A DNA stretch of 64,000 nt from Thermodesulfobacteriota bacterium (GTDB taxonomy: Bacteria; Desulfobacterota; Desulfobulbia; Desulfobulbales; JBFMBH01), in the NCBI GenBank assembly GCA_040755095.1, contig JBFMBH010000005.1:479-64478 (forward strand). The letters run 5' to 3'. The notes below the pieces were generated by a model. The model saw only the letters and a program-made list of their open reading frames with translations, was not told where the DNA came from and searched no databases. This document shows, piece after piece, positions 17,877-59,097 of this stretch. The position numbers and the translations under genes are program-made. Positions within the stretch are counted from its first letter, which is position 1, and each line of letters starts with the position of its first letter.

Positions 17877-17934
17877 GATTGCAGACCTCGCCTCGGAATG
17901 GTCGGCCTCTGGAGGTCGGGGAGCCCAGGGGGCC

Positions 17935-39904: not shown

Positions 39905-40269
39905 GATGCATCCTCAGCGAGCAATGAGCACGAAGCGCCCCACCTGAGGACCTTGACGCCTTCCCTCCTCCATCGGGGGCTTGTCAGGGTCCGGGCCGAC
40001 CGCAACGCCTCGATCGTGTGCGCAGACGAGGTCGCACCTGGCGACCTCGCCCATCAGCAGGAAGCCCGAGGGGCGATCCTGCGACGTCAATGGAGAGGGT
40101 GGGAGTCAGCTCCCTGTGAACGGTGGGTGGCGTGTGGCGCCGGTGGGGCACCGAAGCTCCACAAAGCCATTATAGAACAATGGCCGAGGCATTTCCAGAT
40201 GCCGCTGCCGGTCGCGGTTGCGAGAAAATCCCTTGACAAGGGCAGCGGGGGGCGACTAATGGACAAGGC

Positions 40270-41718
40270 ATGCGCTCCTTCATCCTCCTTCTTGCGTTGG
40301 TGCTTGCTGCCTGTACCCCCGGTCCTGGCAAGCCTGGGCGTCAGGTGCCGCCGGCCGACGCCGCTGGCCTGGCCGTCTATCTCACCGCCTCGGAGCCGCT
40401 GGCCACGGAGGTTTCGTTCGAGCTCAATGGGCTCGCCCTCTTCAATGGCGTCGAATGGCTGCTCCTGGATCCGGGGCCCCAGACGATCAGCGCCCAGGCC
40501 GTGGGGGAGGGTCAGATGCTGTTGGGCTTTTTTGCGGTGCCGCCCGGGGATTACACCCGGCTGCGGGGCACCGTCGGCCCGGCTCGGGTCTCCGAACGGG
40601 GCGACGGCGTCCGCCTGGTGGGCCAGGCCGAGGAGCGGGAGCTGGGCTTTGAGGCCAAGATGCGGCTGGTGGCCGGTCAGCGGGCCTGCCTGCTGGTGGA
40701 CTGGCGGGTGCGCTCGTCTCTCCAGGACAAGGACTGGACCCCGGTCCTGACCGTGACGCCGCAGATGCCGGCCATGACCCGGGAGCTCCTCTATGTGGCC
40801 TGCGACGATATCGACACGGTATTCGTGGTGCGCATGGATACCAACCACGTGGTGGCCGCCTTTGGGGTCCGGGGCGGGCCCACTCAGCTGCGCTACGATG
40901 ACGCCGTGCCCATCCTCTATATACTGGCAAGAGAGACTCGCCTGATCACCGGCCACGACCCCTACGGCAACCGCCAGCTGTCGCGGGCCTTCCTGGGAGG
41001 GCTGCCCGAGCCCCGGTACTGGGATCTGTCCAGGGATGGCCGCTGGGCGTTCGTGACCGACACCGACCAGGCGCTCCTGCAGAAGATCGATGTCACCTCC
41101 GGCTTCGTGGCCCGCCAGCAGTCCTTGAGCCAGCGTCCGGGACGGGTGTTGTTTGTGGCCGAGGCGGAGTCGGGACGGCTGCGCCGGGAGCTGGTGGCGG
41201 TCGCCATGCCCCAGGCCCAGCTGGTGGCCTTCTTCGACCCCGAGACCCTGGAGGTGCTGGAGCCGGCCAGCCTGACGCCGGTCGGTGCCGGCGCCTTGAC
41301 CGGCGTTGACTCGGGCATGGAGCCCGGCCAGATGCTGATGGTGCAGGGCCTCCTCCATGTGGCGGATCGGTTGTCCGGCACCGTGACCATCTACGACCTC
41401 AACCGGGGGCGGCATCTGGCGCGGGTGGCTGTGGGCCTGGAGCCGGTGGCCCTGCTGGCCGGCAAGCAGGACCGCGTCTATGTCAGCCACGCCGGCAGCA
41501 GCAACGTCATGGCCCTGGCCCGGGGCCATCACGCGGTGCTCAAGGATGTGTTCGTGGGGCCGCAGCTGGGGGAGATGGCTCGCCACCTGCGGCGGGGCAG
41601 CCTCTATGTGGCGGTGCAGGGGACCCAGGCCGTGGCGGTCCTGGATCTCAACTCCGACGCCCTGCGGGCGCAGATCCCCTTGCCGGGGCGGCCGGTCTCC
41701 CTGCTGGCCGTCGAATAG
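40270..41718 (+). CDS. Lipoprotein with N-terminal beta-sandwich (DUF4382-like) and YVTN/YncE-like beta-propeller
   Basis: Lipobox LVLAAC. Repeated units such as LYVACDDIDTVFVVRMDTNHVVAAF, RWAFVTDTDQALLQKIDVTSGFV and LYVAVQGTQAVAVLDLNSDAL. Confidence 0.7.
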   Translation: MRSFILLLALVLAACTPGPGKPGRQVPPADAAGLAVYLTASEPLATEVSFELNGLALFNGVEWLLLDPGPQTISAQAVGEGQMLLGFFAVPPGDYTRLRGTVGPARVSERGDGVRLVGQAEERELGFEAKMRLVAGQRACLLVDWRVRSSLQDKDWTPVLTVTPQMPAMTRELLYVACDDIDTVFVVRMDTNHVVAAFGVRGGPTQLRYDDAVPILYILARETRLITGHDPYGNRQLSRAFLGGLPEPRYWDLSRDGRWAFVTDTDQALLQKIDVTSGFVARQQSLSQRPGRVLFVAEAESGRLRRELVAVAMPQAQLVAFFDPETLEVLEPASLTPVGAGALTGVDSGMEPGQMLMVQGLLHVADRLSGTVTIYDLNRGRHLARVAVGLEPVALLAGKQDRVYVSHAGSSNVMALARGHHAVLKDVFVGPQLGEMARHLRRGSLYVAVQGTQAVAVLDLNSDALRAQIPLPGRPVSLLAVE

Positions 41719-41838: not shown

Positions 41839-42939
41839 CTAGTCCTTGTTGGTATGACACTTGAAGCAGCCCGAGTCTGCAGCTGCGCCGGCATTGTGGG
41901 CGTTCATGGTGGCGTAGTCCCAGCGGAGCAGGTCGTCGAAGGATGTGCCGTGTGCCCGGTGGCAGGAGATGCAGGTGACGATGGCCTGGCCGGCCACCGC
42001 CGGATTGACCGCTGCGGCCAGGTTGACCACGCCCACCGGCGCCTCGGCGTTGTCGACGTACGCGGCGTACTCGGAGCCGGTGGCGTCGCTCAGGTCGAAG
42101 TCCACCGGATGCCGCAGCCAGGGCGCGCCGAAGGTGGAGTCAACGCCGGTGTTGCCGGTGCCGCTGTGGAAGTTGCCGTGGCACTCGGCGCACAGGAAGC
42201 TGATGGTGCTCTTGTCCACCGAGGCCAGCTCGTCGCTGATCCGGTCCTTGCCCTTGTACTTGTTGCGATCAACGCTGGTCTCGTTCTCCCAGTCGTTGTC
42301 CTCGACGCCGGTGATCCCCATCAGGAAGCGGAAGCTCTTGCCCACGGTGCTGCCGTCGAGGGTGGCATCATCGGCATGGTGGGCGCCGGAGATGTCCTGG
42401 AAGTCGTCCGCTGCCGCATGCTTGCCGTGGCAGCCATAGGAGCCGGCGCAGGTCAGCTGGCTGGCCCAGGAGGCGGCACCGCCCGCCACCTGCGAGCCGC
42501 CGGTGGGGGTGAAGGTGGCGTCGTTGCTCCAGCCGGGGGGCGTCAGGCCAAAGGCCGCGCCATCCTGGGTGGCGATCCCCTTGACGTTGTGGCCCTTCTT
42601 GTCGACATCACCCTGGGCGTCCGCCACCCAGTAGAAGTTGCCGCCGGCCAGCACGCTGGTCACCGGCGAGGGGGCAGCGTCGGTCTTCAGGACCAGGGGG
42701 ATGTTGCTGGAGCCGCCCAGGAGCGCCGTGCCGCTGTGGCAGCCGACGCAGTCGCCCCGGGTCAGGGCCCGTTGCGGGGTGTTTGTGCCGTCATTGGCCA
42801 TGCTGGCGCCGTTCTGGGAGTTGTGCATGGTGTGACAGTCCGAGCAGACGCCGGTGACCCGGGCCTCGGCATTCCCGCTCAAGCCGCAGAATGCCAGCGC
42901 GAAACCGAAGGCAACGATGGAACCATACAGCTTCTTCAT
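41839..42939 (-). CDS. OmcS-like hexahaem cytochrome c, paralogue 2
   Basis: Signal peptide MKKLYGSIVAFGFALAFCGLSGNAEA. Motifs CSDCHTMHNSQ, CVGCH, CAGSYGCH, CAECH, WLRHP, CISCHRAHG and C-terminal GCFKCHTNKD. GAAGGAG RBS before ATG 42939. Confidence 0.85.
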   Translation of the reverse strand: MKKLYGSIVAFGFALAFCGLSGNAEARVTGVCSDCHTMHNSQNGASMANDGTNTPQRALTRGDCVGCHSGTALLGGSSNIPLVLKTDAAPSPVTSVLAGGNFYWVADAQGDVDKKGHNVKGIATQDGAAFGLTPPGWSNDATFTPTGGSQVAGGAASWASQLTCAGSYGCHGKHAAADDFQDISGAHHADDATLDGSTVGKSFRFLMGITGVEDNDWENETSVDRNKYKGKDRISDELASVDKSTISFLCAECHGNFHSGTGNTGVDSTFGAPWLRHPVDFDLSDATGSEYAAYVDNAEAPVGVVNLAAAVNPAVAGQAIVTCISCHRAHGTSFDDLLRWDYATMNAHNAGAAADSGCFKCHTNKD

Positions 42940-43607: not shown

Positions 43608-44408
43608 CTACATCATCATGGCGTGGGGATCGATATGGCAGGAAAGGCAGTTGGTGGGGTTGGCAATGCTCTTGTCATGGGGATTGCCGTGGCAGGTCAG
43701 GCACTCCGGCAGCAGGTCCGGGCCGTGGCCGAAGCGGTGGCAGAACACGCAGATGAAGGCACCGTGCTTGGTCTTGTTGGTCCGCTGCAGCTCCAGCTGC
43801 TCCGGGTGACAGCCGCCACAGTACGTGGACGGGATGTCCGTTGACCAGGCCACATGGGTCGGCTCATGGGGCTGGTGGCAGCGTAGGCAGGCGCCGTAAT
43901 CCATGCCCTCCACATGGGCCTGGTGGCATTTGAGGCAGGTCTTGAAGGTGCGGTGCACCGGGTGGCAGAAGGAGCAGTCCACCTCGGCATGGGCGCTGGG
44001 GAATTCCTGCATGGCGTCCCCGGGGTAGGGGTGGCAGGACAGGCAGGCCGGCTTGTTGTCGCTATCCTCCCGGAAGGTGATGAGCAGGGGCCGGTGGGGA
44101 TCCTGGTGGCAGGTCAGACACTCGGCCCGGGCGGCGAAGTGCTTGTTGGCAGCGGGCTGGTGGCAACGGGAGCATGCGGGCACCGCGTTCGTGCCCCGGG
44201 GGGGGTGCTCCACGTGGCAGTCCAGGCAGGTGACCCGGGTGCGGTGGCGCTCGCCGTCCTCGAAGATCGCCTTCTGCTGGTCGGGATGGCACTTCTTGCA
44301 GTCGGCGTTGGTCAGGACAGGGGGCTGGGCCCCGGCCTCCAGCACGGCAACCAAGAGACTTGCTGCCAGCACGCCCGCGATACCTGCCCAATAACCTTTG
44401 CTGTCCAC
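43608..44408 (-). CDS. Dodecahaem cytochrome c (12 CxxCH in 266 aa; poly-c7/c3-like)
   Basis: GTG start after GGGAGG. N-terminal hydrophobic segment WAGIAGVLAASLLVAVLEAGA. Twelve CxxCH motifs spaced about 15-25 aa apart. Confidence 0.9.
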   Translation of the reverse strand: MDSKGYWAGIAGVLAASLLVAVLEAGAQPPVLTNADCKKCHPDQQKAIFEDGERHRTRVTCLDCHVEHPPRGTNAVPACSRCHQPAANKHFAARAECLTCHQDPHRPLLITFREDSDNKPACLSCHPYPGDAMQEFPSAHAEVDCSFCHPVHRTFKTCLKCHQAHVEGMDYGACLRCHQPHEPTHVAWSTDIPSTYCGGCHPEQLELQRTNKTKHGAFICVFCHRFGHGPDLLPECLTCHGNPHDKSIANPTNCLSCHIDPHAMMM

Positions 44409-44470: not shown

Positions 44471-45445
44471 CTACTTCTGATGGATCTCGAAAACCTGCAC
44501 GCGCTTGTTGAAGGTGTCAGCGACGATGACCCGGCCGTAGGCGTCCACGCAAACGTCGGACGGGTAGGCCAGCCACCCCCGTCCCGAGCCCTGGCCGCCG
44601 AACTCGAACAGATAGCGTCCCTTCAGGTCGTAGACGTTGACCCCATGCCGCAAATAGTCCGCCACGTAAATGCGGCCGGCCCGGTCGTCCACCGCCACCC
44701 CCCGGGCTCGGGCGAGCTTCCCTGACGAGCCACCCTTCTCGCCGAACCGGAACAGGAAGCGCTCCTCGGCGTCGTAGACATAGACCCTGCCCATGCCCTC
44801 ACTGAGGAGGTAGAGATTCCCTTCCCGGTCGGTGTCCAAGGCGATGATATCCGCCACCTGGCGGCCGCCCCGCACCGTGTCCGTGGGGGCGATGACGTGG
44901 AGAAACCGGCCCTCCCGGTCCAGGACCAGGGCACCCGGATAGTTGCTGCCAGCCATGATGAGGCGGCCTCGGGATCCTTCCACCAGATGGCGGGGGGAGA
45001 ATTCGCTGGCGCCCTCGAAGCCGTCCAGGGTCATTTCCCGCACCTTGATGAAGGCGCCGTCATAGACCTTGATCGCCGGCAGCTCGCCCTGGGCCAGAGG
45101 GCCCCGGCCGGCGTAGAGCAGGCCGTCACCGGTCACCAGCACCGCCGAGGCCCGCCCCAGCTCGCGCCCCTCTCCCAGGGTGAAGGTCGGAAAGTAGTCG
45201 GCTCCGGCATAGAGGGCGATCCGGCCGCCGGCCCCGGAATGCAGGACGTAGAGCTCCTCGGCCTTGCGGTCGTAATGGAGGACCGAGGTGTAGCCCAGGG
45301 CCATGCTGTTGGCATCCACCTCGAGGACCTTGATCACCGCCGTCTCCACATTGGCTGCCGTGGTGGCGGCGGCGCCGGCTGGCTGGGGCCAGAGCGTGGC
45401 CAGGAGCAGGATCAGGAGGAGGACAGGGCTCAGCATGGCGCCCAT
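44471..45445 (-). CDS. Secreted NHL-repeat six-bladed beta-propeller protein
   Basis: Signal peptide MGAMLSPVLLLILLLATLWPQPAGA. NHL units such as ARGVAVDDRAGRIYVADYLRHGVNVYD and YPSDVCVDAYGRVIVADTFNKRVQVFE. No SD-like sequence before either candidate ATG (45445 or 45436). Confidence 0.85.
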   Translation of the reverse strand: MGAMLSPVLLLILLLATLWPQPAGAAATTAANVETAVIKVLEVDANSMALGYTSVLHYDRKAEELYVLHSGAGGRIALYAGADYFPTFTLGEGRELGRASAVLVTGDGLLYAGRGPLAQGELPAIKVYDGAFIKVREMTLDGFEGASEFSPRHLVEGSRGRLIMAGSNYPGALVLDREGRFLHVIAPTDTVRGGRQVADIIALDTDREGNLYLLSEGMGRVYVYDAEERFLFRFGEKGGSSGKLARARGVAVDDRAGRIYVADYLRHGVNVYDLKGRYLFEFGGQGSGRGWLAYPSDVCVDAYGRVIVADTFNKRVQVFEIHQK

Positions 45446-46675: not shown

Positions 46676-46903
46676 GGTCTTGCCTCCTTGTTGTTTCGTT
46701 TTACGGGTTCTTGGGCCAGACTGCGGGACTACAGTTCGGCATCCCAGTCGTGGACTCCGGCCCGATGTCTTGTCTCCGTATGCTGCTCTACTACCCCATT
46801 TGCCATTTGCCTGCAAGGGAATTCGCCCTGCCATTCATGGTCGCCACTGTACGCGATCGGAAAGGGAAAAGATATACGGCGGCTGGCGTATTTTGTTCTG
46901 GCC

Positions 46904-46938
46904 GGTGCTTAGTTCATGATAAGCACTTCTTAAGCACC
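46904..46938. promoter_or_regulatory. Candidate operator: three GTGCTTA/TAAGCAC half-sites in the divergent intergenic region
   Basis: GGTGCTTA-gttcatga-TAAGCAC-ttct-TAAGCACC. It lies between OmcS-like gene 3 (minus) and the OM-barrel/lipoprotein cluster (plus). Confidence 0.4.
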
Positions 46939-47091
46939 CGCCAGGGCTGGCTTGCGCACTGCATTTCGCGGTAGCCGGACCGGGGCAAATATGGTAAGGG
47001 AATGCCCGGATCCAAGGCCCCGGGCCGGTTTTGGCGTCAGGCCAGGGGGGCGACAGCCGAGCGGCCACTCGCTGCTCACAAGGAGATCTCG

Positions 47092-49254
47092 TTGAAGTCC
47101 AGACAGACCTCGGTTGTCGGCCTTCTCGCCATGCTGGGGGCGGCATGCGGGCTTGGCGTTTCCTGGCGCCAGGCCGGGGCCGGGCCGGTGGCCATCAACG
47201 CCACCCTGGACTACTCCGAGACGCGGGGGGACAGGGACAATGACAACGCCTTCCGCCAGACCTTCCAGGTGAGCCTGGCGGATGATATCGCCGTCACCGA
47301 TACCGTAAGCCTCACCCCGGGCTTCCGGCTCAACAACGACTCCAGCGGCGAGCGCAGTGGCGCCTACGCCATCGACCCCAACCTGGGGCTGGCCATGAAT
47401 ACCGACCTGTTCAGCATGAACGGGTCGTACTCCACGACCACCCGCAAGTCCTCGGGGGATCAGCCCAAGACCTTCTCCCAGGCCTGGGACGTCACCTGGG
47501 CCAGCCGCTGGGACCAGCCCTGGCCCTCCTTCCCGGTGCCGGTGCCCTCGGTGCGCGTCGCCTACGGCGGCAACACCACCGAATCCGGGGACGACCTGAC
47601 CGGCCGCAGCTCCTTTGTCACCGGCACGGTGACCGAGGAGTACGACATCTCCATCTTCCAGCTCGCCTACCGCTTTTCCCGGAACATGAACTGGGACGAG
47701 ATCGACGAGATCACCGGCACCAACGACACCCATGATTTCAGTGTCGACGCCAGCGACCGCTATCTGGACGACCGGGTGCAGCTGTCCATGAGCCACCAGA
47801 CCACCCTGGACCGCCGGGTCACCGAATTCAAGGGCGGGGCCGGCAAGGTGATCGAGGAGGGCTTCACGTTGTCGGAGGACGCCTTTGCGGGGCAGGACCC
47901 TCGACCCGCAGAGGAAAATATCTTCATGGACCTCAGCCTCGCCAACGGGCTCGTGAACAGGACGCTCACGGATCGGGTCGTGAACATTCGAGCGGGGGTC
48001 GATACCCCTGGCGCCATTAGCGGGGAGGAGTTCTGGAATATCCTCGTGGAGGTGCCAGCGGCGTTACAGGAGGTCTCCCGCATCTCTCTCTGGCTGGCCG
48101 AGGAGCTTGCGCTGGAGCCGGAAGGTCTGGACACGGAAGGCGACTACAGCTTTGACGTCTACGGGGGCATGACCCAGAATGGTCCCTTCCACCGGCTGAC
48201 GGGGGCGGATGGGCTCGGCGTGTATCAGTCAGGCGTTTTCCCGTCGGCCGGCGGCCTGCCGTTGGGGGGAGGGCTGCGGCCCCGTTTCCTGATCGACCTG
48301 CCCGCTGGGGCGTGGAATGGGGAGAACTTCCTCAAGGTGGTGTGCCGGATTGAGAAGCCAGTCTCCGTGGCGGCCTGGATCAGCGAGGTGACGCTTTCCC
48401 ATGTGCGCACCCTCACCACCGACGACGAGAAGGACGTCAATATCAGCAACACCTACAAGACCGGTCTGACCATGAACGTCGTCCCGGCCATGGACTGGCG
48501 CTTCTCCACCGGCCTGGTGCACACCCTGCGGGAAAGCTCGCCCGGGGGCGAGCGCACGGACCTGACCCACAACATGAACCTGTACTGGACCCCCAACCGT
48601 TATTTCCGGCCAGTGACGGCGTTCAACCGCAGTATCTCCTCGGGGGACGAAGAGGATACCCTGGAGAACCGCTCCTACAGCATGCGGGTGGCCTCCATGC
48701 CCCTGGATGCCCTGTCCACCTCCCTGGGCTTCACCCGCACCGAGGGCTACACCAACCAGGCCCTGGAGACCATCGGGGATGCCCTGTTTCTGAGCCTGGA
48801 CTCCCAGATCCTCCCCGATTTGTCCGCCAGCCTGGCCGCTTCCTCCACCAAGACGACCAACCGGGTCAGCGGTGCCACGGCCTCGGCCATGCAGGTGGAT
48901 CTGACCGGCAACATGCGGGTGACGCCCCGGCTCACGGCGGACGCCACCCTGGAATTCAGCGAGGCGGACGAGGAGCCCTTCGGCTATGGCGCTGCCCTGT
49001 CCTGGCGGCCGACGGATGTTCTGGCCTGCACCTTGGACTACGAAGGGGGCAACGAAAGCACCATCACCTTGTCTCCGGCCGTGCGGCTGAGCCGGGAGCT
49101 GCAGCTGACCGGCTCATTCGTCCACAGTGACGAGGACGATCTGTTGTCCGTGCAGTCCAAATGGCTGCTCAACGAGCTCATGACCCTGGACCTCCGCTAC
49201 CGGTGGCGGGAGGAGGAATGGGCCTGGAACGTGCGCTTGACAGCAGGCCTGTGA
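47092..49254 (+). CDS. Putative outer-membrane beta-barrel protein with a large inserted soluble domain
   Basis: TTG 47092 lies 6 nt after AAGGAG. Signal peptide KSRQTSVVGLLAMLGAACGLGVSW. Both ends are rich in short alternating polar/hydrophobic strands with Asn/Asp/Gly/Ser turns (LDYSETRGDRDNDNAFRQTFQVSL...; ...LTGSFVHSDEDDLLSVQSKWLLNELMTLDLRYRW). No family recognised by eye. Confidence 0.6.
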   Translation: MKSRQTSVVGLLAMLGAACGLGVSWRQAGAGPVAINATLDYSETRGDRDNDNAFRQTFQVSLADDIAVTDTVSLTPGFRLNNDSSGERSGAYAIDPNLGLAMNTDLFSMNGSYSTTTRKSSGDQPKTFSQAWDVTWASRWDQPWPSFPVPVPSVRVAYGGNTTESGDDLTGRSSFVTGTVTEEYDISIFQLAYRFSRNMNWDEIDEITGTNDTHDFSVDASDRYLDDRVQLSMSHQTTLDRRVTEFKGGAGKVIEEGFTLSEDAFAGQDPRPAEENIFMDLSLANGLVNRTLTDRVVNIRAGVDTPGAISGEEFWNILVEVPAALQEVSRISLWLAEELALEPEGLDTEGDYSFDVYGGMTQNGPFHRLTGADGLGVYQSGVFPSAGGLPLGGGLRPRFLIDLPAGAWNGENFLKVVCRIEKPVSVAAWISEVTLSHVRTLTTDDEKDVNISNTYKTGLTMNVVPAMDWRFSTGLVHTLRESSPGGERTDLTHNMNLYWTPNRYFRPVTAFNRSISSGDEEDTLENRSYSMRVASMPLDALSTSLGFTRTEGYTNQALETIGDALFLSLDSQILPDLSASLAASSTKTTNRVSGATASAMQVDLTGNMRVTPRLTADATLEFSEADEEPFGYGAALSWRPTDVLACTLDYEGGNESTITLSPAVRLSRELQLTGSFVHSDEDDLLSVQSKWLLNELMTLDLRYRWREEEWAWNVRLTAGL

Positions 49255-49408
49255 TGTGCTCTACTCGCCCCGAAGTCTGCGCTGCTGCGTCCAGTCCAGG
49301 GCCGGCGGCCACGGATCCGGAACCGATTGTGCTGTGTGGGGCGACGGCATTGGCGGCAGGCGGCCGTGCTCCGGACCGGCGGCATTCTGGCAGAGAGGAC
49401 TTTTCCAT

Positions 49409-50041
49409 ATGGCTGGCTGGTGGCCGATCCGGCGGCAGGTGCGGAAGGCGGGCGGCAGGGGATGGCAGGGGGCCGTGGCGGCTCGCCTGGGGGGACTTCT
49501 GCTGGTGGTCCTGGTGGCCGGTTGCAGCTCCCATGCCCTGACCTATTATGTCCGGGAGGGCGCTGACCTGACCTTCATCAAGAAGGTGGCGGTCATGCCC
49601 CTGGCCAACAACACCAAGGAGAAGTTTGCCGCCGACCGGGTGCGCAACATCGTGCTGACCCAGGTTCTGGTGGACAGCCTGTTCGACGTCACCGAGACTG
49701 GCCAGCTGGAGAAGATCCTGGAGGAGGAGGCCGGCAAGGCGGATGCGCCTCTGGATGAGGCCCTGGCCCGCCGGCTCGGCAAGCGGTTGTCCGTACAGGC
49801 GTTTCTCCTGGGATCGGTGGATGCCTACGACGAGGAGCGCAAGGGCAACTACTCGTATCCCGTCGTTGCCATGACCTTGAAGCTGGTGGATGCCGAGACC
49901 GGTCTCATTCTGTGGCAGGCCAGCGGCTCTTACAGCGGCTACAGCAGCTGGAGCCGCATCCTCGGCACCCAGGGCAGGGATCAGTCGGCGGTGACCTTTC
50001 GTCTCGTGCGGTCGCTTCTGGCCAGTCTCAGCGGCGACTAG
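49409..50041 (+). CDS. Lipoprotein, PelC/CsgG-N/LpoB/DUF799-like alpha/beta fold, paralogue 1
   Basis: Lipobox LVAGC. KKVAVMPLANNT...DSLFDVTE...LGKRLSVQAFLLGSVDAY...VAMTLKLVDAETGLILWQA. Confidence 0.7.
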   Translation: MAGWWPIRRQVRKAGGRGWQGAVAARLGGLLLVVLVAGCSSHALTYYVREGADLTFIKKVAVMPLANNTKEKFAADRVRNIVLTQVLVDSLFDVTETGQLEKILEEEAGKADAPLDEALARRLGKRLSVQAFLLGSVDAYDEERKGNYSYPVVAMTLKLVDAETGLILWQASGSYSGYSSWSRILGTQGRDQSAVTFRLVRSLLASLSGD

Positions 50042-50098
50042 TCTGGCCTTCGCTCCGTGAGGACGCATCGTCCAGCAGGCCTGCCGTCCCACCGCCTC

Positions 50099-51640
50099 AT
50101 GAGCCTCGGCTTCTCCCCCGGTGCCTGGCCCCGCCTCCTGATCCTCCTCTTCCTGCTGGGCCTCCTGCCGGCAGCCCCGGCGCCGGCCGGTGCCGCCAGC
50201 GGCAAGGTGGCGCTTCTGCCCTTCGACGATCTGTCCCGGGGCGCCAATTCGGTGGACCTGGAGATGACCACCCAGGTCGCCGATCTCCTGACGGTGTCCG
50301 GAATCAACGTGGTGGATGCCCAGGCGGTGCGGGCGTATCTCGCGACCAACCGCGTGCGCCACACCGGGATGATCGATCTCTTCAACACCATGGGCATGCG
50401 GGAGGCCCTGGGTGTGGACTGGATCCTTACCGGCACGGTGACCCACCGCCGCCCCGAGCCGCAGCCGGCCCTGGGCCTGTCCCTTCTCCTGGTGGACGCC
50501 CACACCGGCAAGGCCGTCTGGGCCTGGAACGAGAGCCTGGCCGCCACCGAGCTGGTGAAACCCCTGGGAATCGACGCTGTCACCAGTCTGGCCGCGATCA
50601 CCGATCTGGTCCTGGCCCGGGTGCCGTTCCAGTTTCCGGAGCCCGGCGAAGCCCTGGTGGACCTGCCCATTCCGCCATACTCGGTGGAGAGCTTCGATCT
50701 GAGCTCCCGGTTCGTCGCCGGCAATGGCCGGATGGAGTGCCGGGTGGGCTTCCGTTTTGATGAGGAGCCGCCCACCGACGTCTTCCTGAAGCTGGGGGGC
50801 AAGCGCATCAGTCTGGTGTCCATGGCCAAGGAGAGCGGCACCTACTGGGCGAGCTGGCAGGCGCCGGAGGCAGAGGGGCGCTATTCGGTCGCCACGGTTC
50901 TGCGGTGGAAAGGCCGGCGGGAGGAGTCCAAGTTCCTGGCCTCCTACCGGGTGGTGAACGAGCCGCCGACCGTGTCCCTGCGCTTCGGCAACGGCGTGCC
51001 CCTGGGGGATTCCGGCGTCATCGCCTTCCGCTCCTTCCTGAGCATCAGCCCGGTCGTCAACAAGACCGCTCCCGTGGCTTCGTTCCGCATCCAGATCGAA
51101 GACCCGAAGACCGGCGCCTTCCTCATGGACTTCAAAAGCATCGAGAGCCTGCCCGAAGCCATGGTCTGGCGCGGTGCCGGTGATCAGGGGCCTCTGGGCT
51201 CCGGCTACTACCGGCTCATCCTCACCGTCACCGATGTCATGGGCAACGAGATCGCGGATTCGGCGGAGCTGTACCTGGGCAAGAATCAGCCCCGGGTGCT
51301 GCCCGCCATGGAGCGTCTCGAAGACGGGAGGGTTCAGCTCCACCTCATGGCGGTCCCCGATCCCCAGACCGGCGAGATGGAGCCGGTGCCGGTGAAGTAC
51401 TGGCAGCTGCGGGTCACGGATCGGGAGCGCAACTTCCTTCTGGAAGAGGAGGGAGAGACGCTGCCGGCCACCGTCACGCTGGATCCCGGCGCCGAGACGG
51501 TCTTTCTGGTCTCCTACCTGGTGCGGGATGTCCTGGGCAACGAGCGCCACGCCCGCAGCGAGACCGTGGAGCTGCCCGTTACCGGCGGCGGCGAGGACCA
51601 AGACAAGAAGGAGACCGATGTCTGGCATGAGGAGTTCTAG
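50099..51640 (+). CDS. Secreted protein: the same alpha/beta fold (paralogue 2) + three Ig-like/FlgD-Ig-like beta-sandwich domains
   Basis: Signal peptide ...LLILLFLLGLLPAAPAPAGA. GKVALLPFDDLS...GINVVD...LGVDWILTGTVTH...LSLLLVDAHTGKAVWAW. Later MVWRGAGDQGPLGSGYYRLILTVTDVMGNE (FlgD-Ig-like). Confidence 0.7.
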   Translation: MSLGFSPGAWPRLLILLFLLGLLPAAPAPAGAASGKVALLPFDDLSRGANSVDLEMTTQVADLLTVSGINVVDAQAVRAYLATNRVRHTGMIDLFNTMGMREALGVDWILTGTVTHRRPEPQPALGLSLLLVDAHTGKAVWAWNESLAATELVKPLGIDAVTSLAAITDLVLARVPFQFPEPGEALVDLPIPPYSVESFDLSSRFVAGNGRMECRVGFRFDEEPPTDVFLKLGGKRISLVSMAKESGTYWASWQAPEAEGRYSVATVLRWKGRREESKFLASYRVVNEPPTVSLRFGNGVPLGDSGVIAFRSFLSISPVVNKTAPVASFRIQIEDPKTGAFLMDFKSIESLPEAMVWRGAGDQGPLGSGYYRLILTVTDVMGNEIADSAELYLGKNQPRVLPAMERLEDGRVQLHLMAVPDPQTGEMEPVPVKYWQLRVTDRERNFLLEEEGETLPATVTLDPGAETVFLVSYLVRDVLGNERHARSETVELPVTGGGEDQDKKETDVWHEEF

Positions 51641-52304
51641 TTCGGCCAGCACCGGCTGCTGGCCGCCCGGGTCGAAAAGCCGCTCCGGGGGGACCCCTGG
51701 CGGTTCGCATCCAGGTCGGGTACACTGGCTCGTCACCGTTCTTCTGGCGTGTCTCGCCGCCGGCTGCGGCAAGGCCCAGCACAGTCTGGGCCTGGTGGCC
51801 GCGGGGGGGGAGGGGATCTGCCGGGTGGCGGTGCTGCCCTTCCGGGACCAGGGCAAGGTGCCCTTTGGCGGGCACGTGGTCCAGCGGACGTTCACCGCGG
51901 AGCTCATCGCCAGCGGCCGCTTCGATGTAGCCCTGGAGGGTGAGGTGCTGGCCTTTTTCCGGGAGAACCGGCAGCTGCCCCAGGCGACCCTGTCCCGGGA
52001 CTTCTACATCAAGATGGGCCAGACCATGGGCGTGGACGCCATCGTGGCGGGCACGGTGCTCGGCATGAGCGAAGGCTCCGAGGGCCGGGATATGGTGGTG
52101 CCAGAGGTGGCCTTCTCCCTGGAGCTGATCCGGATCCGGGATGGCAAGCCCCTGGTGGTGACCCACCACCACCGTGCCGGGGATGAGTATCGATGGCTCA
52201 TGCACGTCGGGGTGGTGCAGACCATTTCGGAGCTGGTGAGCCGGATGAGCAAGGAGGCGATCGAGGAATGGCGTATCTTGGGCTTCGAGGGTTGTCGGTT
52301 GTGA
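51618..52304 (+). CDS. Lipoprotein, same alpha/beta fold, paralogue 3
   Basis: Lipobox CLAAGC. CRVAVLPFRDQG...SGRFDVAL...MGVDAIVAGTVLGM...AFSLELIRIRDGKPLV. AAGGAG RBS; the start overlaps the upstream stop by 23 nt. Confidence 0.7.
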   Translation: MSGMRSSSSASTGCWPPGSKSRSGGTPGGSHPGRVHWLVTVLLACLAAGCGKAQHSLGLVAAGGEGICRVAVLPFRDQGKVPFGGHVVQRTFTAELIASGRFDVALEGEVLAFFRENRQLPQATLSRDFYIKMGQTMGVDAIVAGTVLGMSEGSEGRDMVVPEVAFSLELIRIRDGKPLVVTHHHRAGDEYRWLMHVGVVQTISELVSRMSKEAIEEWRILGFEGCRL

Positions 52305-53992
52305 AGCGGGCCAGCTTGCTGGGCCTCGTGACGGTGCTGGTGCTCTGGGGCTCCCTGGCACAGGCGGTGTGGCCCTTCGGGGAACGGCACCTCCTGGTTC
52401 TCAATGGCGCCGGGCACAGCAAGGCGGATTTTCTGCAATTCTGGGAGCAGTGGAAGGAAGAGGACAGCCCGGTTCCCGACAGCCCGGATTTCTGGATCGA
52501 CTGGCTGCTGTTTTATCAGGAGGCCGAGCAGATGGAGCTGGGCGATGCCCCGGCGGTGCAGGCCAAGCTGTTCACCTTCCTCAAGGTGCGGGCCCTCATG
52601 CAGCTGCGCCAGGACGAGGTGACCAGCAGGATGGCCGCCGTCGATGAGGAGCGCCTCTGGCAGCGCTATTTGCAGGACGAGGCGCCCCTGTACAAGATCG
52701 AGAGCGTGCTCATCGCCGACCAGGCGGCTGCTGGCCGCTTCGCTGAGCTGGCGCGGGCTGGCCGCCCGTTCGCCGAGGTCGTCACCGATCCCAGCCTCGG
52801 CCTGGCCGAGCCGCCCAAGGTGATCTCGTCGGACTGGCTGCGGAAGAGCAAGGTGCCCGAGACCTACCGGGAGGATCTGGCGAAGGCCGAGCTCGGCTCC
52901 GTGCTCGGTCCCCTGTTCTGGGAGCCCAAGAAGACCTACTACCTGGTGCGGAAGGTAGAGCAGCAGGCTGGCAGCCAAGAGGACTTCCAGAGGATCCGCA
53001 AGGACATCGAGGAGCGGCTCTTCAAGGAGGAGGACGGCCGCCTGACCAGAGACCTCCTGGTCCGTCTGATGAAGGAGTACGAGGTGGTGACCCACGACGA
53101 CCGGATCGAAGCCCTGCCCATGAACGGCGGCTCCCAGGAGCAGCTGAGCGCCGTGGTGGTGGAGATGAAGGGCGGCAGGACGGTCACCGGCGGTGAGCTC
53201 GTGCAGATGGTGATGCGGGATCTGTCCATGCGGATGCGGCCCAATGCCCAGGGCTCTTTCGACATGGTGCATGGCGATTTCAATGACGCCAAGCGCCGGG
53301 TGCTCATGGATTACCTGGGGGCGGAGCTGACGGTTCGGGCCGCCCTGGACCGTCACTATGAGCAGAAGCCGCCCATCAAGGATGTGTTCGATTTTTACCG
53401 CCAGCGGCGCATGATCCTCGAGCTGAAGAACCGGCTGTTCCGCACCCAGGTGGAGGTCAGCGACCAGGAGGCCCAGGCCTTCTACCAGGCCAACCAGCAG
53501 CTGTTCACCCACCCCGCCTCCCTGGAGCTCGCCATCCTGAGCACCCGGGACGAGAAGCTGGCCGATTTCCTGCGCAAGGAGCTTCTCTCGGGCAAGGATT
53601 TCTTCGAGGTGGCCAACCATGTGGTGGCCGGCGGGGTGAATCCGACCAATGTGCTGGTGAGCGATCTCGATCCGGCGATGGTCGAGGCCCTGTCCGGAGT
53701 GGCCGAGGGGGCGCAGGTGGGCCCGGTGAAGATCGGCGAGGATACCCACTTCATCAAGCTTATCCGCCGGCGGGAGTCGGTGGTGCGGCCCTTGGACGAA
53801 GTCAAGCACATGATCACCAGGAAGCTGCACGAGGAGCGGATCCAGGAGAAGGAGGAGGCCTTTCGGCAGAAGCTGCGGGCGGTCTCCAAGATCGAGGTGG
53901 ATGACGGCCAGTGGCAGGAGGTGGTCCGCACCCTGAAGGCCCAGGAGGCGGCCCGGCAACAGGAGAAGGACAAGCCGGCAAAGGGCAGTTGA
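52301..53992 (+). CDS. SurA/PpiD-like periplasmic chaperone with parvulin-type peptidyl-prolyl isomerase domain
   Basis: GTG 52301 overlaps the upstream stop (GTGA); the alternative is ATG 52268. Signal peptide VKRASLLGLVTVLVLWGSLAQA. C-terminal rotamase-like ...FFEVANHV...VSDLDPAMVEALSGVAEGAQVGPVKIGEDTHFIKLIRRR. Confidence 0.75.
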   Translation: MKRASLLGLVTVLVLWGSLAQAVWPFGERHLLVLNGAGHSKADFLQFWEQWKEEDSPVPDSPDFWIDWLLFYQEAEQMELGDAPAVQAKLFTFLKVRALMQLRQDEVTSRMAAVDEERLWQRYLQDEAPLYKIESVLIADQAAAGRFAELARAGRPFAEVVTDPSLGLAEPPKVISSDWLRKSKVPETYREDLAKAELGSVLGPLFWEPKKTYYLVRKVEQQAGSQEDFQRIRKDIEERLFKEEDGRLTRDLLVRLMKEYEVVTHDDRIEALPMNGGSQEQLSAVVVEMKGGRTVTGGELVQMVMRDLSMRMRPNAQGSFDMVHGDFNDAKRRVLMDYLGAELTVRAALDRHYEQKPPIKDVFDFYRQRRMILELKNRLFRTQVEVSDQEAQAFYQANQQLFTHPASLELAILSTRDEKLADFLRKELLSGKDFFEVANHVVAGGVNPTNVLVSDLDPAMVEALSGVAEGAQVGPVKIGEDTHFIKLIRRRESVVRPLDEVKHMITRKLHEERIQEKEEAFRQKLRAVSKIEVDDGQWQEVVRTLKAQEAARQQEKDKPAKGS

Positions 53993-54098: not shown

Positions 54099-56123
54099 AT
54101 GATGCAGGAGACACGCCAAGTGGGCAATGGCAGTCGGATGGGGCTCTTGGGGAGACAGGGAACGGTGTGGCTGTTGACCGCCGCGCTGCTCCTGGGGCTG
54201 GCCGCCTGCGTGCCCCAGCCGTCCGAGTCGTCCCGATCTGCCGGCAAGGCCAAGAAGAGCTGCGTGGAGTGCCACGAGACCGAGTACAAGGCCTTCCAGA
54301 CCGGGGTGGTGCACAAACCGGTACAGGAGGCCAAATGCGACGGCTGCCATGACCCCCACGGCATGATCGGCGGCACCTTGCTCAAAGCGGATGAGCCGGA
54401 GCTGTGCTATTCCTGCCACGCTGCCGTCCGCCAGGCGGTCCAGGGGGCGGCTCACGGCCATCCGCCGCTCCAGAGCACGACGGCCGCCTGCACCAGCTGC
54501 CATGCTGTCCACAACTCCCCCCATGCCAAGCTCCTCAAGGAGCCGGCCGCTACCTTGTGCTTCAAGTGTCACGATCAGACGGAGTTCGGCCGCACCAACC
54601 GTCACCAGCCGCTGCAAACCGGGTGTGCCTCATGCCACCAGGTGCATGGCGCCCCGGCAGCCAAGCTGCTGCCCAAGGAGCCGGACGCCTTCTGCCAGGA
54701 CTGCCACCAGCCGGACGGCAAGGGGATGGAGGCAGGCCACCGGGGGTACCCCGTGCAGGGGGGCTGCGTCTCTTGCCATCAGCCCCACTCGGCCAGTCGC
54801 GCCAAGCTGATCCGGGAGGTCCCGCACCAGCCGATGCTGGAGGGGCAGTGCGAGTCCTGCCATGCCGGCAAGGGCAAGCCCGAGCCACTCGCCCTGACCG
54901 GCACGGGCAGCAGCCTGTGCCGCGGCTGCCATGACGATGTGACCGCCGGTCAGACCCAGAGCGTCCATGCACCGGTCACCGGGGGCGAGTGTCTCTCCTG
55001 CCACGCCCCCCACGGCAGCAACCACCAGGCCATGTCCCGTCAGGCCCCGGAAAGGCTGTGCTTCGAGTGCCATACCTTCAAGCAGATCGGGCCGGAGAAG
55101 ACAGGGCAGACCGAGAACGGCCACCAGCCGGCTGCCGAAGGCCGGTGCCTGACCTGCCACGCGGCCCACGCCGCACCGGTCAAGCCGCTGCTCAAGAGCC
55201 CTGCCGCCGACCTGTGCTTCTCCTGCCATGGCAAGGAGCCGGGGTTGGCCGACCGGAGCCACCAGCCGGTGAAGGAGCGGCGCTGCACCTTGTGCCACTC
55301 GCCCCACGAGTCCCAGGGCAGCCATCTTCTGGCGGGAAGCGAGCAGGAGATCTGCCTGACCTGTCACAAGAAGACCGGGGACGATATGACCCTGGCCTAT
55401 CTCCATCATCCCTTTGCCAACGGCGATTGCACCGGCTGCCACGCCGCCCACGGCTCCAGAAGCGCCGGCATGCTCAAGGCCAGCGGCGTTGCCCTGTGCG
55501 CCTCCTGCCACCAGAAGCTCATCGAGGAGCGGACGGCCAATATGAAGAAGCATCAGCCCTTTGCCCAGGGCGAGTGCATGAAGTGCCACGCCCCCCATGG
55601 CTCGGACAACCCCTTCACCCTGGTGCACAAGCTGGCGGACACCTGCTTCACCTGTCACAGCGGCCTGGAGCGCCAGATCGGCTCGGCCCGGCAGGTCCAT
55701 GAACCGGTGGTCAAGCGGAACTGCACCGCCTGTCATACGCCGCATGCCTCGGCCCAGGACCACCTGATCACCCGGGCGATGCCCGAGCTGTGCCTGGCCT
55801 GCCACAAGGAGGTGGCGGAATTCTGGAGCGGCGGCTTCGCGCATGAGCCGGCGGTCTCCGGGCAGTGCGCCAGCTGCCACGTCAGCCATGCCGGCGCCGA
55901 GGCCAAGCTGCTGGCCCGCAGCGCCTCAGGTCTGTGCGCCACCTGCCATCAGATCAGTGATACGGAGATGGTGCGGATCCACAAGGGGATCCGGCCGTCG
56001 GAAAAGAGCTGCACCAGCTGCCACGACAGCCATGGCTCTCCCACCCAGAGCCTGACCTTTGCGGTGGAGCATGCCCCCTTCAAGGAGCGGGACTGCAAAC
56101 CATGCCACGAGGAGGCGAAGTGA
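54099..56123 (+). CDS. Lipoprotein multihaem cytochrome c with 26 CxxCH motifs
   Basis: Lipobox LLGLAAC. Twenty-six CxxCH motifs counted, in a paired arrangement (C..CH.[PV]H......L.......LC..CH). The start may be ATG 54138. Confidence 0.9.
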   Translation: MMQETRQVGNGSRMGLLGRQGTVWLLTAALLLGLAACVPQPSESSRSAGKAKKSCVECHETEYKAFQTGVVHKPVQEAKCDGCHDPHGMIGGTLLKADEPELCYSCHAAVRQAVQGAAHGHPPLQSTTAACTSCHAVHNSPHAKLLKEPAATLCFKCHDQTEFGRTNRHQPLQTGCASCHQVHGAPAAKLLPKEPDAFCQDCHQPDGKGMEAGHRGYPVQGGCVSCHQPHSASRAKLIREVPHQPMLEGQCESCHAGKGKPEPLALTGTGSSLCRGCHDDVTAGQTQSVHAPVTGGECLSCHAPHGSNHQAMSRQAPERLCFECHTFKQIGPEKTGQTENGHQPAAEGRCLTCHAAHAAPVKPLLKSPAADLCFSCHGKEPGLADRSHQPVKERRCTLCHSPHESQGSHLLAGSEQEICLTCHKKTGDDMTLAYLHHPFANGDCTGCHAAHGSRSAGMLKASGVALCASCHQKLIEERTANMKKHQPFAQGECMKCHAPHGSDNPFTLVHKLADTCFTCHSGLERQIGSARQVHEPVVKRNCTACHTPHASAQDHLITRAMPELCLACHKEVAEFWSGGFAHEPAVSGQCASCHVSHAGAEAKLLARSASGLCATCHQISDTEMVRIHKGIRPSEKSCTSCHDSHGSPTQSLTFAVEHAPFKERDCKPCHEEAK

Positions 56124-57307
56124 TGCGCGGCTTTTTCCTGATCGTCGTGATGGCGGCCGGCCTCGGCTTCACCCTCGCCGAGGCCCAGGCCGCCCGGACC
56201 AACTGCACGGCCTGCCACGACCCCGAGAGCTTCGCTGGCCGGGTGGTGCATGGCCCGGTGGCGGAGAAGAAATGCTTTTCCTGCCACAGCCCCCACGCCT
56301 CCCGCCATGAAGCCCTGCTCTATGGCAAATCCCCGGAGCTGTGCTTCAGCTGCCACAAGGATATCGACGAGGGGCTGAAGAAGCAGGAGATGCTGCACGG
56401 CCCGGTCCGGCAGGGCAAGTGCGCCGACTGCCACCTGCCGCATGCGGGCAAGGACGATGCCCTGCTCAAGGCCGGGGTACCGGAGTTGTGCTTCGGCTGC
56501 CACAAGGAGGTGGCCGGCCGGGGTGCCCGGCATACCCATGCGCCGTTTGCCCGGGGCCAGTGTCAGGCCTGCCACGTGGCCCACGGCTCCAGCACGGTCG
56601 CCCTGCTCAAGGCCGGGGTGCCGGGGCTGTGCCTGGGCTGCCACAAGGACGAAGGCGCGATCCGCGGCAAGCATTTGGGACGGGCCCTGGCGGGGATGGA
56701 CTGCCTCACCTGCCACAGCGGCCACGGCTCGGACCACAACGCCCTGGTGCGCAACAACCTCCACCCGCCGTTCAAAGACAAGGACTGCGGCACCTGCCAC
56801 AACCGTACCGACAAAGGGGTGGCCCTGTGCTTCGACTGCCACGAAGGCATCCAGAGCTCCTTCAACTACACCCACAACCACATGATGTCGGTGTCCGGGG
56901 TGGACAACATCTGTCTGTCCTGCCACAACGCCCATGCAGCGGACGACAAGAAGATGCTGGCCGGCACCCAGTACGGTGTCTGCAAGCGCTGTCACGCCGA
57001 CACCTTCAAGCGCCGGGAGGGGGCGTTGCACACCCATCCCAACTGGGGGGTCTGCACCAATTGCCATCAGGCCCACGGCTCCAACCAGATCGCCCTCATC
57101 CGGGGGGATGGCAATGGCACCTGTGAGCAGTGCCATGCCACCCAGGGCAAGTTTGTCCACCCCATCGGCGACAAGGTCCGGGATCCCCGTTCCGGCCAAC
57201 CGGTGACCTGTGTCACCTGCCACAATGTCCATGGCACCGCCTTCAAGTACAACCTCCGCCTGTCGGGGGAGAAGGACCTCTGTGTCCAGTGCCACAAGAG
57301 CTACTAG
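56123..57307 (+). CDS. Periplasmic/secreted multihaem cytochrome c with 16 CxxCH motifs
   Basis: Signal peptide MRGFFLIVVMAAGLGFTLAEAQA. Sixteen CxxCH motifs counted. Its ATG overlaps the upstream stop (TGATG). Confidence 0.9.
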   Translation: MRGFFLIVVMAAGLGFTLAEAQAARTNCTACHDPESFAGRVVHGPVAEKKCFSCHSPHASRHEALLYGKSPELCFSCHKDIDEGLKKQEMLHGPVRQGKCADCHLPHAGKDDALLKAGVPELCFGCHKEVAGRGARHTHAPFARGQCQACHVAHGSSTVALLKAGVPGLCLGCHKDEGAIRGKHLGRALAGMDCLTCHSGHGSDHNALVRNNLHPPFKDKDCGTCHNRTDKGVALCFDCHEGIQSSFNYTHNHMMSVSGVDNICLSCHNAHAADDKKMLAGTQYGVCKRCHADTFKRREGALHTHPNWGVCTNCHQAHGSNQIALIRGDGNGTCEQCHATQGKFVHPIGDKVRDPRSGQPVTCVTCHNVHGTAFKYNLRLSGEKDLCVQCHKSY

Positions 57308-57330
57308 CCCCGAGGAAGGAGACTCCGACC

Positions 57331-58206
57331 ATGAAGAGGACGCTCGCAGCCGCCCTGATGGCGGTCATCCTGGTCGCCGCGCCAGCGGCAGCCGATCGTT
57401 CCCCGTGGAAATGGGACAAGGCCCTGACCGGCGATGACGCCGGGGTGCATCTGCTCAGGCCGGCCAGCCTGTTCTGGGATGCGGCCGAGGAGCGCTACTA
57501 CGTGGTGGACACCATGAACTCCCGGCTTGCCTCCTACGATCGGGAGGGGGTCTTCCTCAAGCAGCTCCGGGCGGGCGGTCAGCTCGGGCTGCCGGTATCC
57601 ATGGGCCGGGATCCCCGGGGCGGGATCTGGGTGGTGGATCGCAAGCTCAATGCCCTGCAGTACGTGGATCTCAAGGCCCAGAAGGTGGAGGCCAAGACGG
57701 TCAAGTACAAGGACGGGGCAACGGTGTTCCTGGACCGGCTGTTCGTGGACCCGGCGGGCACCATCTACGTTCTGGACCGGAGCCGGGGGGGGGTTCTGCG
57801 CCTGGGCCCCGATCTGAGCGTGACCACAGAGCTCCGGGGCGAGGAGAAGGCCGCTTTCGTGGACTTCAAGGTGAGGAGTGACGGCGTCTGGGCCCTGGAC
57901 CAGAGAAACCGTGCGCTGGTGGTTTTTGGCGCCGACGGCTCGGTGTCCCGGAAGATCGGTCTGAAGGGGGATCTGGAGTTTCCGGTCTCCTTCGATGTCG
58001 ACGAGCACGGGCTCATCTACGTTCTGGACCGGCACGCCGGCGCCATTCGGGTCTTCGACCGTGGCGGCGAATTCCGCTACGGCTTCCTGGAGGTGGGCAG
58101 CGCCCGGGGCCAGCTCTATTTCCCCTCTCAGCTGCTGTTCGACGGCCTGGGCCGCCTGTGCGTGGCCAACGAGGGCAACGGCCGGGTGGATATTTACCGG
58201 CGCTAA
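57331..58206 (+). CDS. Secreted NHL-repeat beta-propeller protein
   Basis: AGGAAGGAG RBS. Signal peptide MKRTLAAALMAVILVAAPAAA. NHL-like units such as FPVSFDVDEHGLIYVLDRHAGAIRVFD and FPSQLLFDGLGRLCVANEGNGRVDIY. Confidence 0.85.
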   Translation: MKRTLAAALMAVILVAAPAAADRSPWKWDKALTGDDAGVHLLRPASLFWDAAEERYYVVDTMNSRLASYDREGVFLKQLRAGGQLGLPVSMGRDPRGGIWVVDRKLNALQYVDLKAQKVEAKTVKYKDGATVFLDRLFVDPAGTIYVLDRSRGGVLRLGPDLSVTTELRGEEKAAFVDFKVRSDGVWALDQRNRALVVFGADGSVSRKIGLKGDLEFPVSFDVDEHGLIYVLDRHAGAIRVFDRGGEFRYGFLEVGSARGQLYFPSQLLFDGLGRLCVANEGNGRVDIYRR

Positions 58207-58299: not shown

Positions 58300-59097
58300 C
58301 TACCGGTCCCTTCGACCTTCGAAATTCCTTGTTGGACCTTCTGCGGTTCGTTCTTTCGGTTCTGGTGTGCCTTCCAGGAAGGCGTAGGCGCTGTGCTTGT
58401 GGATGGACTCGAAGCTCTCCACCCCCACCGAAAACCAGGCGATCTCCGGCAAGCCGGATGCCAGCTCCGCCACCCGGCGGACCACGTCCTCGACAAACAT
58501 CGGGTTCCGGTAGGCGGCCTCGGTCACGTACTTCTCGTCCGGCCTTTTGAGGAGAGCGAAGACCGGCGCCGAGGCGGCCCGCTCCACCAGGGCGATGAGG
58601 TCCTCCGCCCACAGGAAGCGGCGGCGGAAGCGGACGTTGAGGTTGACCTCGCCCCGCTGGTTGTGGGCCCCGAATTGACTGATCTCCTTGGAGCAAGGAC
58701 ACAGCGTGGTGATGGGCGCCCACACCCCGAGCACAAAGTCCCGGGTCTGGTCCCCCACCGTGCCGGTGAAGGCGCAGCGGTACTCCATCAGGCTGCGGGT
58801 GCCCGACACCGGCGCCTCCTTGGTGAGGAAGTAGGGAAAGCTCATGGCGAGTTGGGCGGACTGGGCGGCCAGCCGCTCCCGTACCTCCTCCAGAAGGCGG
58901 GAGAAGATCCGGACGCTCATCTGGGCCTGGTAGCGGTGCAGCACCTCGAGAAGACTGGCGGCGCAGGTGTCATGCCGGGAGCTGGGCATGGCGGCGGACA
59001 GGCAGACGGTGGCTACGGTCTGCTGCCGGCTGCCAGCCTTCTCCTCCACCTGGACCGGGTAACGGATGTTCTTGATGCCGACGCTGGCGAGCTTCAT
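58300..59097 (-). CDS. folE2: GTP cyclohydrolase FolE2/MptA family
   Basis: [54 protein letters not shown]. Confidence 0.8.

Follow-up and report, generated by a model that had tools for sequence, protein, structure and literature searches.

It is only partly understood how cytochromes, once folded and loaded with haem, get out of the cell and assemble into conductive filaments micrometres long; the omcS-companion (osc) system of Geobacter sulfurreducens is the best current candidate for the machinery. It reportedly comprises a beta-propeller-like protein (OscD), channel-like proteins (OscEFG) and a prolyl-isomerase chaperone (OscH). Here, we compare with it an envelope-gene cluster in a 64,000-nucleotide stretch of DNA (the window), part of a contig from a metagenome-assembled genome (MAG) labelled Thermodesulfobacteriota bacterium. 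We consider, with a probability of about 0.8, that positions 47092-53992 hold the OscE-F-G-H core of an osc-type operon, that is, an envelope machine for OmcS-family cytochrome filaments; the roles of its parts would, by analogy, be those reported in Geobacter. The system is thus of a known, published kind, and the window carries a divergent variant of it.

In published Geobacter work, omcS, omcT and oscC (GSU2501) are members of the osc operon, GSU2495 is oscI and GSU2494 is oscJ; the same work links OscH with folding, OscE, OscF and OscG with secretion, and OscD with morphology. Wherever a GSU2501-type gene occurs, the eight-gene block GSU2500-GSU2493 is found with it, and this block has been tied to the maturation and secretion of nanowires. 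The cytochrome GSU2495 has ~70 kDa and 26 haems, GSU2497 carries a lipoprotein annotation, GSU2499 is listed as hypothetical, and large barrels have been reported in most OmcS and OmcE regions.

Our reading is supported by linkage to omcS across genomes. To avoid circularity, 79 loci were fetched from species-representative genomes by OmcS similarity alone, with a query sequence recovered from the Protein Data Bank (PDB) alignment; no locus exceeds 67% identity to G. sulfurreducens OmcS, and G. sulfurreducens itself is absent from the set. The loci come from Geobacterales, Geomonas, Citrifermentans, Anaeromyxobacter, Nitrospirota, Rokubacteria, Acidobacteriota and other taxa, and the counts rest on the 60 in which 6 kb or more of sequence follows the omcS homologue. 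A barrel-family gene is present in 54 of these 60, a small lipoprotein gene likewise in 54, and an OscD-type propeller directly precedes the barrel in 55. The recurrent (canonical) order is NHL, OmcS or OmcS-like, propeller, barrel, lipoprotein of ~200 amino acids (aa), two-domain lipoprotein of ~380 aa, parvulin and 26-haem cytochrome, and the window follows this order from the barrel onward. The original prediction, made from the letters of the window, had proposed a machine analogous to osc and named a lack of co-occurrence with OmcS-family genes in other genomes as a refutation; both the analogy and the co-occurrence are borne out by these counts and by a gene order like that of GSU2500-GSU2493.

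Counting the genes between oscC and oscI in canonical loci provides the Osc letters used below. By position, the propeller is OscD, the barrel OscE, the small lipoprotein OscF, the ~380-aa lipoprotein OscG and the parvulin OscH, in agreement with the protein types reported for OscD, OscEFG and OscH. In the same order as the canonical loci, the window has the barrel, an F-type lipoprotein, LpoB-like domains 1 and 2, the parvulin, 26-haem and multihaem cytochromes and an NHL protein; the cluster adjoins OmcS-family genes, and OscD-type propeller and NHL genes lie in the same island. Profiles built from canonical loci only, with no sequence of the window's own clade, match the window barrel and parvulin and nothing else in the window. 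Close relatives with the same barrel-lipoprotein-middle paralogue-lipoprotein-parvulin order are locus L085 (parvulin 47% identical) and the L001-L005 group (28%). In L001, the order runs on into 26-haem cytochrome, cytochrome and NHL genes, and an OmcS-like gene lies directly upstream.

The five + strand genes of this core are genuine and lie at the coordinates given in Table 1. Their third-position GC content (GC3) is 0.83-0.89, versus 0.69-0.72 for the long antisense open reading frames (ORFs), and all five products carry export signals that can be read directly from the sequence. The barrel gene starts at TTG 47092, with AAGGAG 6 nt before it. The ORF of lipoprotein 1 opens at 49256, and ATG 49409 is its likely start as read from the sequence; the start of the middle gene is GTG 50057. 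Lipoprotein 3 opens with ATG 51618, preceded by AAGGAG, and its first 23 nt overlap the end of the middle gene (TAG at 51638-51640). A GTGA start/stop overlap with lipoprotein 3 contains GTG 52301, the start of the prolyl isomerase, whose 563-aa translation is identical to the NCBI protein. The five ORFs, the 23-nt and 4-nt overlaps (51618-51640 and 52301-52304) and the 416-bp gap to an opposite-strand OmcS-like gene, which starts at 46675 (-) behind AAGGAGG, had all been predicted correctly. The extent of the unit had not: rather than ending at 53992, these five genes are the core of an eight-gene operon that continues through two cytochromes and an NHL propeller to 58206.

Table 1. Features of the osc-type operon and of the neighbouring cytochrome genes (positions in the window)
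Feature	Coordinates	Strand	Basis
OscD-type beta-propeller lipoprotein, 482 aa, lipobox LAAC	40270..41718	+	propeller HMM, GC3
OmcS-like cytochrome 2	41839..42939	-	ORF to 43008; MKKLYG at 42939 is the likely start
12-haem cytochrome, between the two OmcS-like genes	43608..44408	-	12 CXXCH, Pfam
NHL propeller, between the two OmcS-like genes	44471..45445	-	Pfam
OmcS-like cytochrome 3, 369 aa	45566..46675	-	divergent from barrel
Divergent intergenic region, 416 bp	46676..47091	.	read from sequence
Outer-membrane beta-barrel, 720 aa, OscE position	47092..49254	+	AlphaFold2 model, family HMM
Lipoprotein 1, OscF type, ~210 aa, single LpoB/CsgG-N-like domain	49409..50041	+	Pfam, canonical F HMM
Middle paralogue, 527 aa, OscG domain 1 plus ~340-aa all-beta extension	50057..51640	+	G domain 1 HMM
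Lipoprotein 3, 228 aa, equivalent to OscG domain 2	51618..52304	+	G domain 2 HMM
SurA/PpiD-like parvulin prolyl isomerase, periplasmic, 563 aa, OscH position	52301..53992	+	Rotamase_2, canonical HMM
26-haem c-type cytochrome, 674 aa, OscI/GSU2495 type	54099..56123	+	26 CXXCH, 13 paired-CXXCH matches
16-haem c-type cytochrome, 401 aa, OscJ position	56102..57307	+	16 CXXCH; 44% identical to L001 gene at this position
NHL-repeat beta-propeller, OscK position	57130..58206	+	Pfam NHL E 9e-10

Neither Pfam nor NCBIfam gives a significant match for the 720-aa barrel protein. Word-index protein searches, with the barrel alone or with a 61-sequence profile, found the barrel itself and one relative; an exhaustive search of 1.8 billion representatives was needed to recover the family, which is compact, with proteins of ~700 aa and 174 representatives at E <= 1e-3. 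A profile hidden Markov model (HMM) built from 47 canonical OmcS-linked barrels finds the window barrel at E 2.3e-20. The AlphaFold2 model from the 61-sequence alignment is all-beta, with a mean predicted local distance difference test score (pLDDT) of 85.9 and a predicted template-modelling score (pTM) of 0.72, and consists of a signal peptide, 11 strands, an inserted beta-sandwich (residues 248-444, 197 aa) and 17 further strands. Foldseek matches this model exclusively to large outer-membrane barrels (TonB-dependent receptors, LptD, PapC), and the C-terminal residue is F, L or Y in most family members. The protein, initially proposed by eye as barrel-like, is therefore confidently modelled as an outer-membrane barrel of ~28 strands.

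The barrel and its insert, first estimated at ~160 aa, had also been put forward as possible new components. The barrel is a conserved protein of the OscE position, and the insert is found in all 61 aligned members of the family (126-174 aa there versus 197 aa here); being universal in the family, it is no new component. The insert itself gives weak CBM32 and F5-F8-type-C signals. Since it follows strand 11, standard outer-membrane-protein topology, with both termini periplasmic and 28 strands, predicts that it should sit outside the cell or inside the barrel lumen, where it might act as a lid or filament dock. A barrel-family protein of Dissulfurirhabdus thermomarina (P0160) has a weak NCBIfam match (8e-6) to the C-terminal part of the 'GSU2204 family CXXCH-containing (seleno)protein', a hint that other cytochrome-linked Geobacter outer-membrane proteins are distant relatives of the barrel family.

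The last gene of the core encodes a prolyl isomerase with a Pfam Rotamase_2 match (E 8e-17) and an N-terminal hydrophobic segment that is either a signal or an anchor. An HMM of canonical OscH-position proteins, which carry a SurA_N and two parvulin domains, aligns with it collinearly at E 4.2e-30, and the predicted SurA/PpiD-like prolyl isomerase is thereby confirmed. Like SurA, PpiD and PrsA, it has the Rotamase_2 domain; it differs from them in falling far under all NCBIfam equivalog cut-offs (31.5 versus 493 bits for PpiD, 58.3 versus 303 for PRK00059). It belongs to a dedicated, cluster-specific parvulin family.

The three small proteins are paralogues over a domain of ~110-170 aa (BLASTP E 3e-12, 4e-3 and 2e-5), and the Pfam families that they match are LpoB, CsgG, GNA1162 and TolB_N; paralogy and Pfam matches together uphold the common LpoB/CsgG-N-like fold that had been recognized by eye. 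Lipoprotein 1 exceeds the Pfam cut-offs of both LpoB (34.3 bits) and CsgG (24.6 bits), the latter match covering profile positions 34-147 of 210, that is, the N-terminal alpha/beta part only. Its lipobox is LVAGC and that of lipoprotein 3 is LAAGC. The middle paralogue has a cleavable signal of the signal-peptidase-I type with no cysteine, as do its homologues, and is therefore not a lipoprotein. Of the 'three paralogous lipoproteins' of the original prediction, paralogy stands and lipidation of the middle member does not. Nor are the three equivalent to one another: one is of the F type and two are halves of OscG.

This assignment comes from HMMs of canonical OscF, OscG domain 1 and OscG domain 2, each scored against each of the small proteins of the window. 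Lipoprotein 1 scores 106.6 bits with F, 35.6 with G domain 1 and 30.4 with G domain 2; the N-domain of the middle paralogue scores 21.2, 61.8 and 38.7 bits, and lipoprotein 3 scores 35.5, 25.3 and 56.7 bits, in the same order. The pattern recurs in L085, and in L001 the F and G domain 2 scores of lipoprotein 3 are nearly tied (58.2 versus 59.0 bits). In a phmmer domain comparison, lipoprotein 3 matches domain 2 best in seven of seven canonical OscG-position proteins. The canonical protein at this position is a ~380-aa lipoprotein with two tandem LpoB-like domains; in the window's cluster, both domains occur in the right order on two separate genes. The clean assignment indicates that OscG has been split in the window's clade, or fused elsewhere.

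The middle gene, which corresponds to the first half of OscG, no longer encodes a lipid anchor and has acquired ~340 aa that are predicted to form beta structure. This extension has no counterpart in canonical loci. It is predicted to be all-beta and gives weak Big_13 matches; the original identification of an immunoglobulin (Ig) domain stays weak because an AlphaFold model made without an alignment (pLDDT 37.6) is unusable. As for the suggestion that the middle paralogue is a new component, the beta-rich extension is indeed peculiar to a small clade, and the N-domain is simply OscG domain 1. The protein ends (51626-51640) in W-x-[DE]-[DE]-F, with the W and the F unchanged across six sequences (the window, L085, L001 and L087-L089). 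Canonical OscG-position proteins do not have this tail, which could be a docking peptide. A metagenome scan with the middle paralogue returned four loci, one known before and three further short contigs, and by this sampling of sequences the split type is rare. In other lineages, very large proteins with PKD, Y_Y_Y or Calx-beta repeats follow the small lipoprotein (L063:15537-18995 and L015:17481-20318), so beta-sandwich additions are recurrent at that position of the cluster. In architecture, the divided OscG and its beta-rich arm are a real departure from the canonical form, though a modest one.

Several further differences set the window apart from the canonical osc loci, and some of them weigh against our reading. 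The split OscG, with its first half lacking a lipobox and carrying the ~340-aa extension and WxDEF end, has been described above, and the barrel insert is ~40 aa longer than elsewhere. The propeller is not directly upstream of the barrel, as it is in canonical loci, but 5.4 kb away, with four - strand genes, cytochrome genes among them, in between; the OmcS-like genes of the window are on the opposite strand and divergent, whereas in canonical loci they share the strand of the cluster and precede it. The proteins resemble their canonical counterparts only distantly (identity <20% for the barrel, ~20% for the parvulin and 24-30% for the lipoprotein domains), the OmcS-like proteins are themselves divergent from OmcS (E 7e-8 and 0.56), and the Osc letters follow position and gene numbering rather than alignment to G. 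sulfurreducens proteins. One should also keep in mind that the organism is known solely as a MAG and that function is carried over from Geobacter genetics.

A different role for the barrel would be that of a porin-cytochrome electron conduit, sheathing the 26-haem and/or the 16-haem cytochrome in the manner of MtrB and MtrA and carrying electrons from the periplasm to the filament base, with the lipoproteins and parvulin merely assembling the conduit. The two cytochrome genes belong to the same operon, at positions conserved in canonical loci, and MtrCAB likewise combines a very large single-chain outer-membrane barrel with neighbouring multihaem cytochrome genes. The top Foldseek TM-score of the barrel model is also to MtrB (6r2q_B, 0.38/0.41), but a value of ~0.4 reflects generic large-barrel shape only. 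Pfam, NCBIfam and PDB sequence searches detected no similarity to MtrB or to Pcc porins, and we reject membership of these families; compared with MtrB, the window barrel has ~28 strands instead of 26 and an inserted beta-sandwich, and Mtr clusters are without the LpoB-like lipoproteins and the parvulin. Since the published Geobacter genetics cited above tie OscE, OscF and OscG to OmcS secretion, we regard the conduit as an unlikely primary function. The conduit and export roles are not mutually exclusive.

Even less probable, to the point of being hardly credible, is the reading as a cluster for envelope biogenesis in general or for polysaccharide export, placed beside cytochrome genes by chance, whether it pairs an EpsD-like prolyl isomerase with an outer-membrane barrel in the PEP-CTERM/exopolysaccharide (EPS) manner or is built on LpoB-type regulators of peptidoglycan synthases. 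UniRef calls one barrel-family member a 'TIGR03016 family PEP-CTERM system-associated outer membrane protein', yet at E up to 1 NCBIfam gives no TIGR03016 match for any of four barrels, namely the window barrel, two canonical barrels and the Dissulfurirhabdus protein so named. Weak matches of the parvulin to the EpsD family TIGR02925 (2.6e-5 here, 2.8e-9 in L040) would fit an EPS system, but the island contains no glycosyltransferase, exosortase or penicillin-binding protein gene. Lipoprotein 1 passes the Pfam LpoB threshold, a fold-level domain, and reaches only 34.2 bits against a cut-off of 110.55 with the LpoB equivalog model TIGR02722. It is not a CsgG curli channel either, as it is without a full-length CsgG domain and the membrane-spanning part is not covered. 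The omcS linkage of 90% over several phyla, for a barrel family of just 174 clusters among 1.8 billion representatives, excludes a chance association.

Under the osc-type export reading, OmcS-like subunits would leave the cytoplasm through Sec and be loaded with haem in the periplasm, where the parvulin would hold and isomerise them. They would then be passed to an outer-membrane complex formed by the ~28-stranded barrel and, on its periplasmic face, three LpoB/CsgG-N-like domains, which in the window lineage are encoded by three genes and not two. The subunits, or the growing filament, would go through this complex or anchor in it. The folding, secretion and anchoring roles are taken from Geobacter genetics, and the association of barrel and lipoproteins and the route of passage are what we infer from the set of parts. 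MtrB, with 26 strands, encloses folded MtrA (PDB 6R2Q), so a barrel of ~28-strand size can hold a folded multihaem protein. The pairing of an outer-membrane barrel with small alpha/beta lipoproteins of the LpoB/CsgG-N/TolB-N type is shared with LptD/LptE, curli CsgG and the PelB/PelC pair of Pel. The cargo of the window machine would differ from that of the LptD, CsgG and Pel machines in being a folded haem protein. CsgG and PelC form homo-oligomeric rings, whereas three distinct conserved LpoB-like domains are found here, which suggests a hetero-assembly.

The locus extends osc to a very divergent lineage of Thermodesulfobacteriota and does not add a new kind of system. What it does bring out is an invariant core consisting of three LpoB-like domains, a barrel with an insert and a parvulin, and experiments on single domains, as well as multimer models of the export complex, could take the natural split of the two-domain lipoprotein as their guide.

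The filament subunits of this lineage may themselves be unusual. OmcS-like cytochrome 2 matches OmcS of PDB 6EF8 in phmmer at E 7e-8 (query 54-368, OmcS 8-350), and OmcS-like cytochrome 3, which is 42% identical to it (E 5e-74), gives a weak but full-length match to the same structure at E 0.56. Both have five CXXCH motifs plus CAGS[YF]GCH (CX5CH) in place of the third CXXCH of OmcS. Six plain CXXCH are present in 118 of 147 OmcS-like ORFs of the fetched loci, and CX5CH occurs only in the split-OscG clade (including L001:3120-4484). It is possible, if rather doubtful, that the window, L085 and the L001 group represent a rare, distinct subtype of the export machine, evolved jointly with another kind of filament subunit. 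If this were so, the cytochrome filament of this organism would have a new structure, and the gene fission would be a natural dissection of which OscG domain needs an outer-membrane tether.

Downstream of the core, the 26-haem cytochrome matches the genes at the equivalent position in canonical loci along its entire length, with 35-38% identity (E 1e-119 to 1e-158). The NHL propeller that closes the operon shares 39% identity with its 296-aa NHL counterpart at that position in L001, and its true start is probably after 57307. A terminator-like hairpin lies at 58333-58350 and none was seen before 58333 in the operon; the terminator scan itself performed at or below chance.

Upstream, the beta-propeller that the original prediction expected from the composition of osc does exist, at 40270-41718 and hence outside the five-gene coordinates. 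The genes that immediately precede canonical barrels encode YVTN/YncE-type beta-propellers of ~480-500 aa, and an HMM built from 45 of them matches the window propeller at E 5.2e-23. The 499-aa ORF at 40087-41586 (-) is spurious when judged by its GC3 (0.73 versus 0.88 for the propeller gene) and by the propeller HMM. As with the NHL gene among the OmcS-like genes here, an NHL gene precedes the omcS homologue in most canonical loci. The 416-bp spacer presumably holds the promoters of both arms; no sigma-70-like site and no Rfam element were found in it, the sigma-70 scan being at or below chance, and the only Rfam element within the window is one tRNA.

The cytochrome island as a whole spans ~38.0-58.2 kb, with housekeeping genes on its flanks. 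The gene at 38720-39904 (-) encodes a five-CXXCH cytochrome with a central FN3/purple-acid-phosphatase-N-like domain; the PDB search shows no OmcS match for it, so it is unlikely to belong to the OmcS family. A LuxR/GerE-type response regulator at 37245-37979 (+) lies at the island border and is a candidate regulator; in G. sulfurreducens, genes for a sigma-54 response regulator and a histidine kinase flank the omcS region. Elsewhere in the window, a giant 2617-aa ORF at 7610-15463 (-), with a GC3 of 0.91, encodes multihaem cytochrome c7/c3 domains at its N terminus along with a GEVED domain, and adjoins a gene for an 879-aa NHL/InlB-B-repeat protein at 15477-18116 (-); the stretch 7610-18116 may be a second extracellular electron-transfer module.

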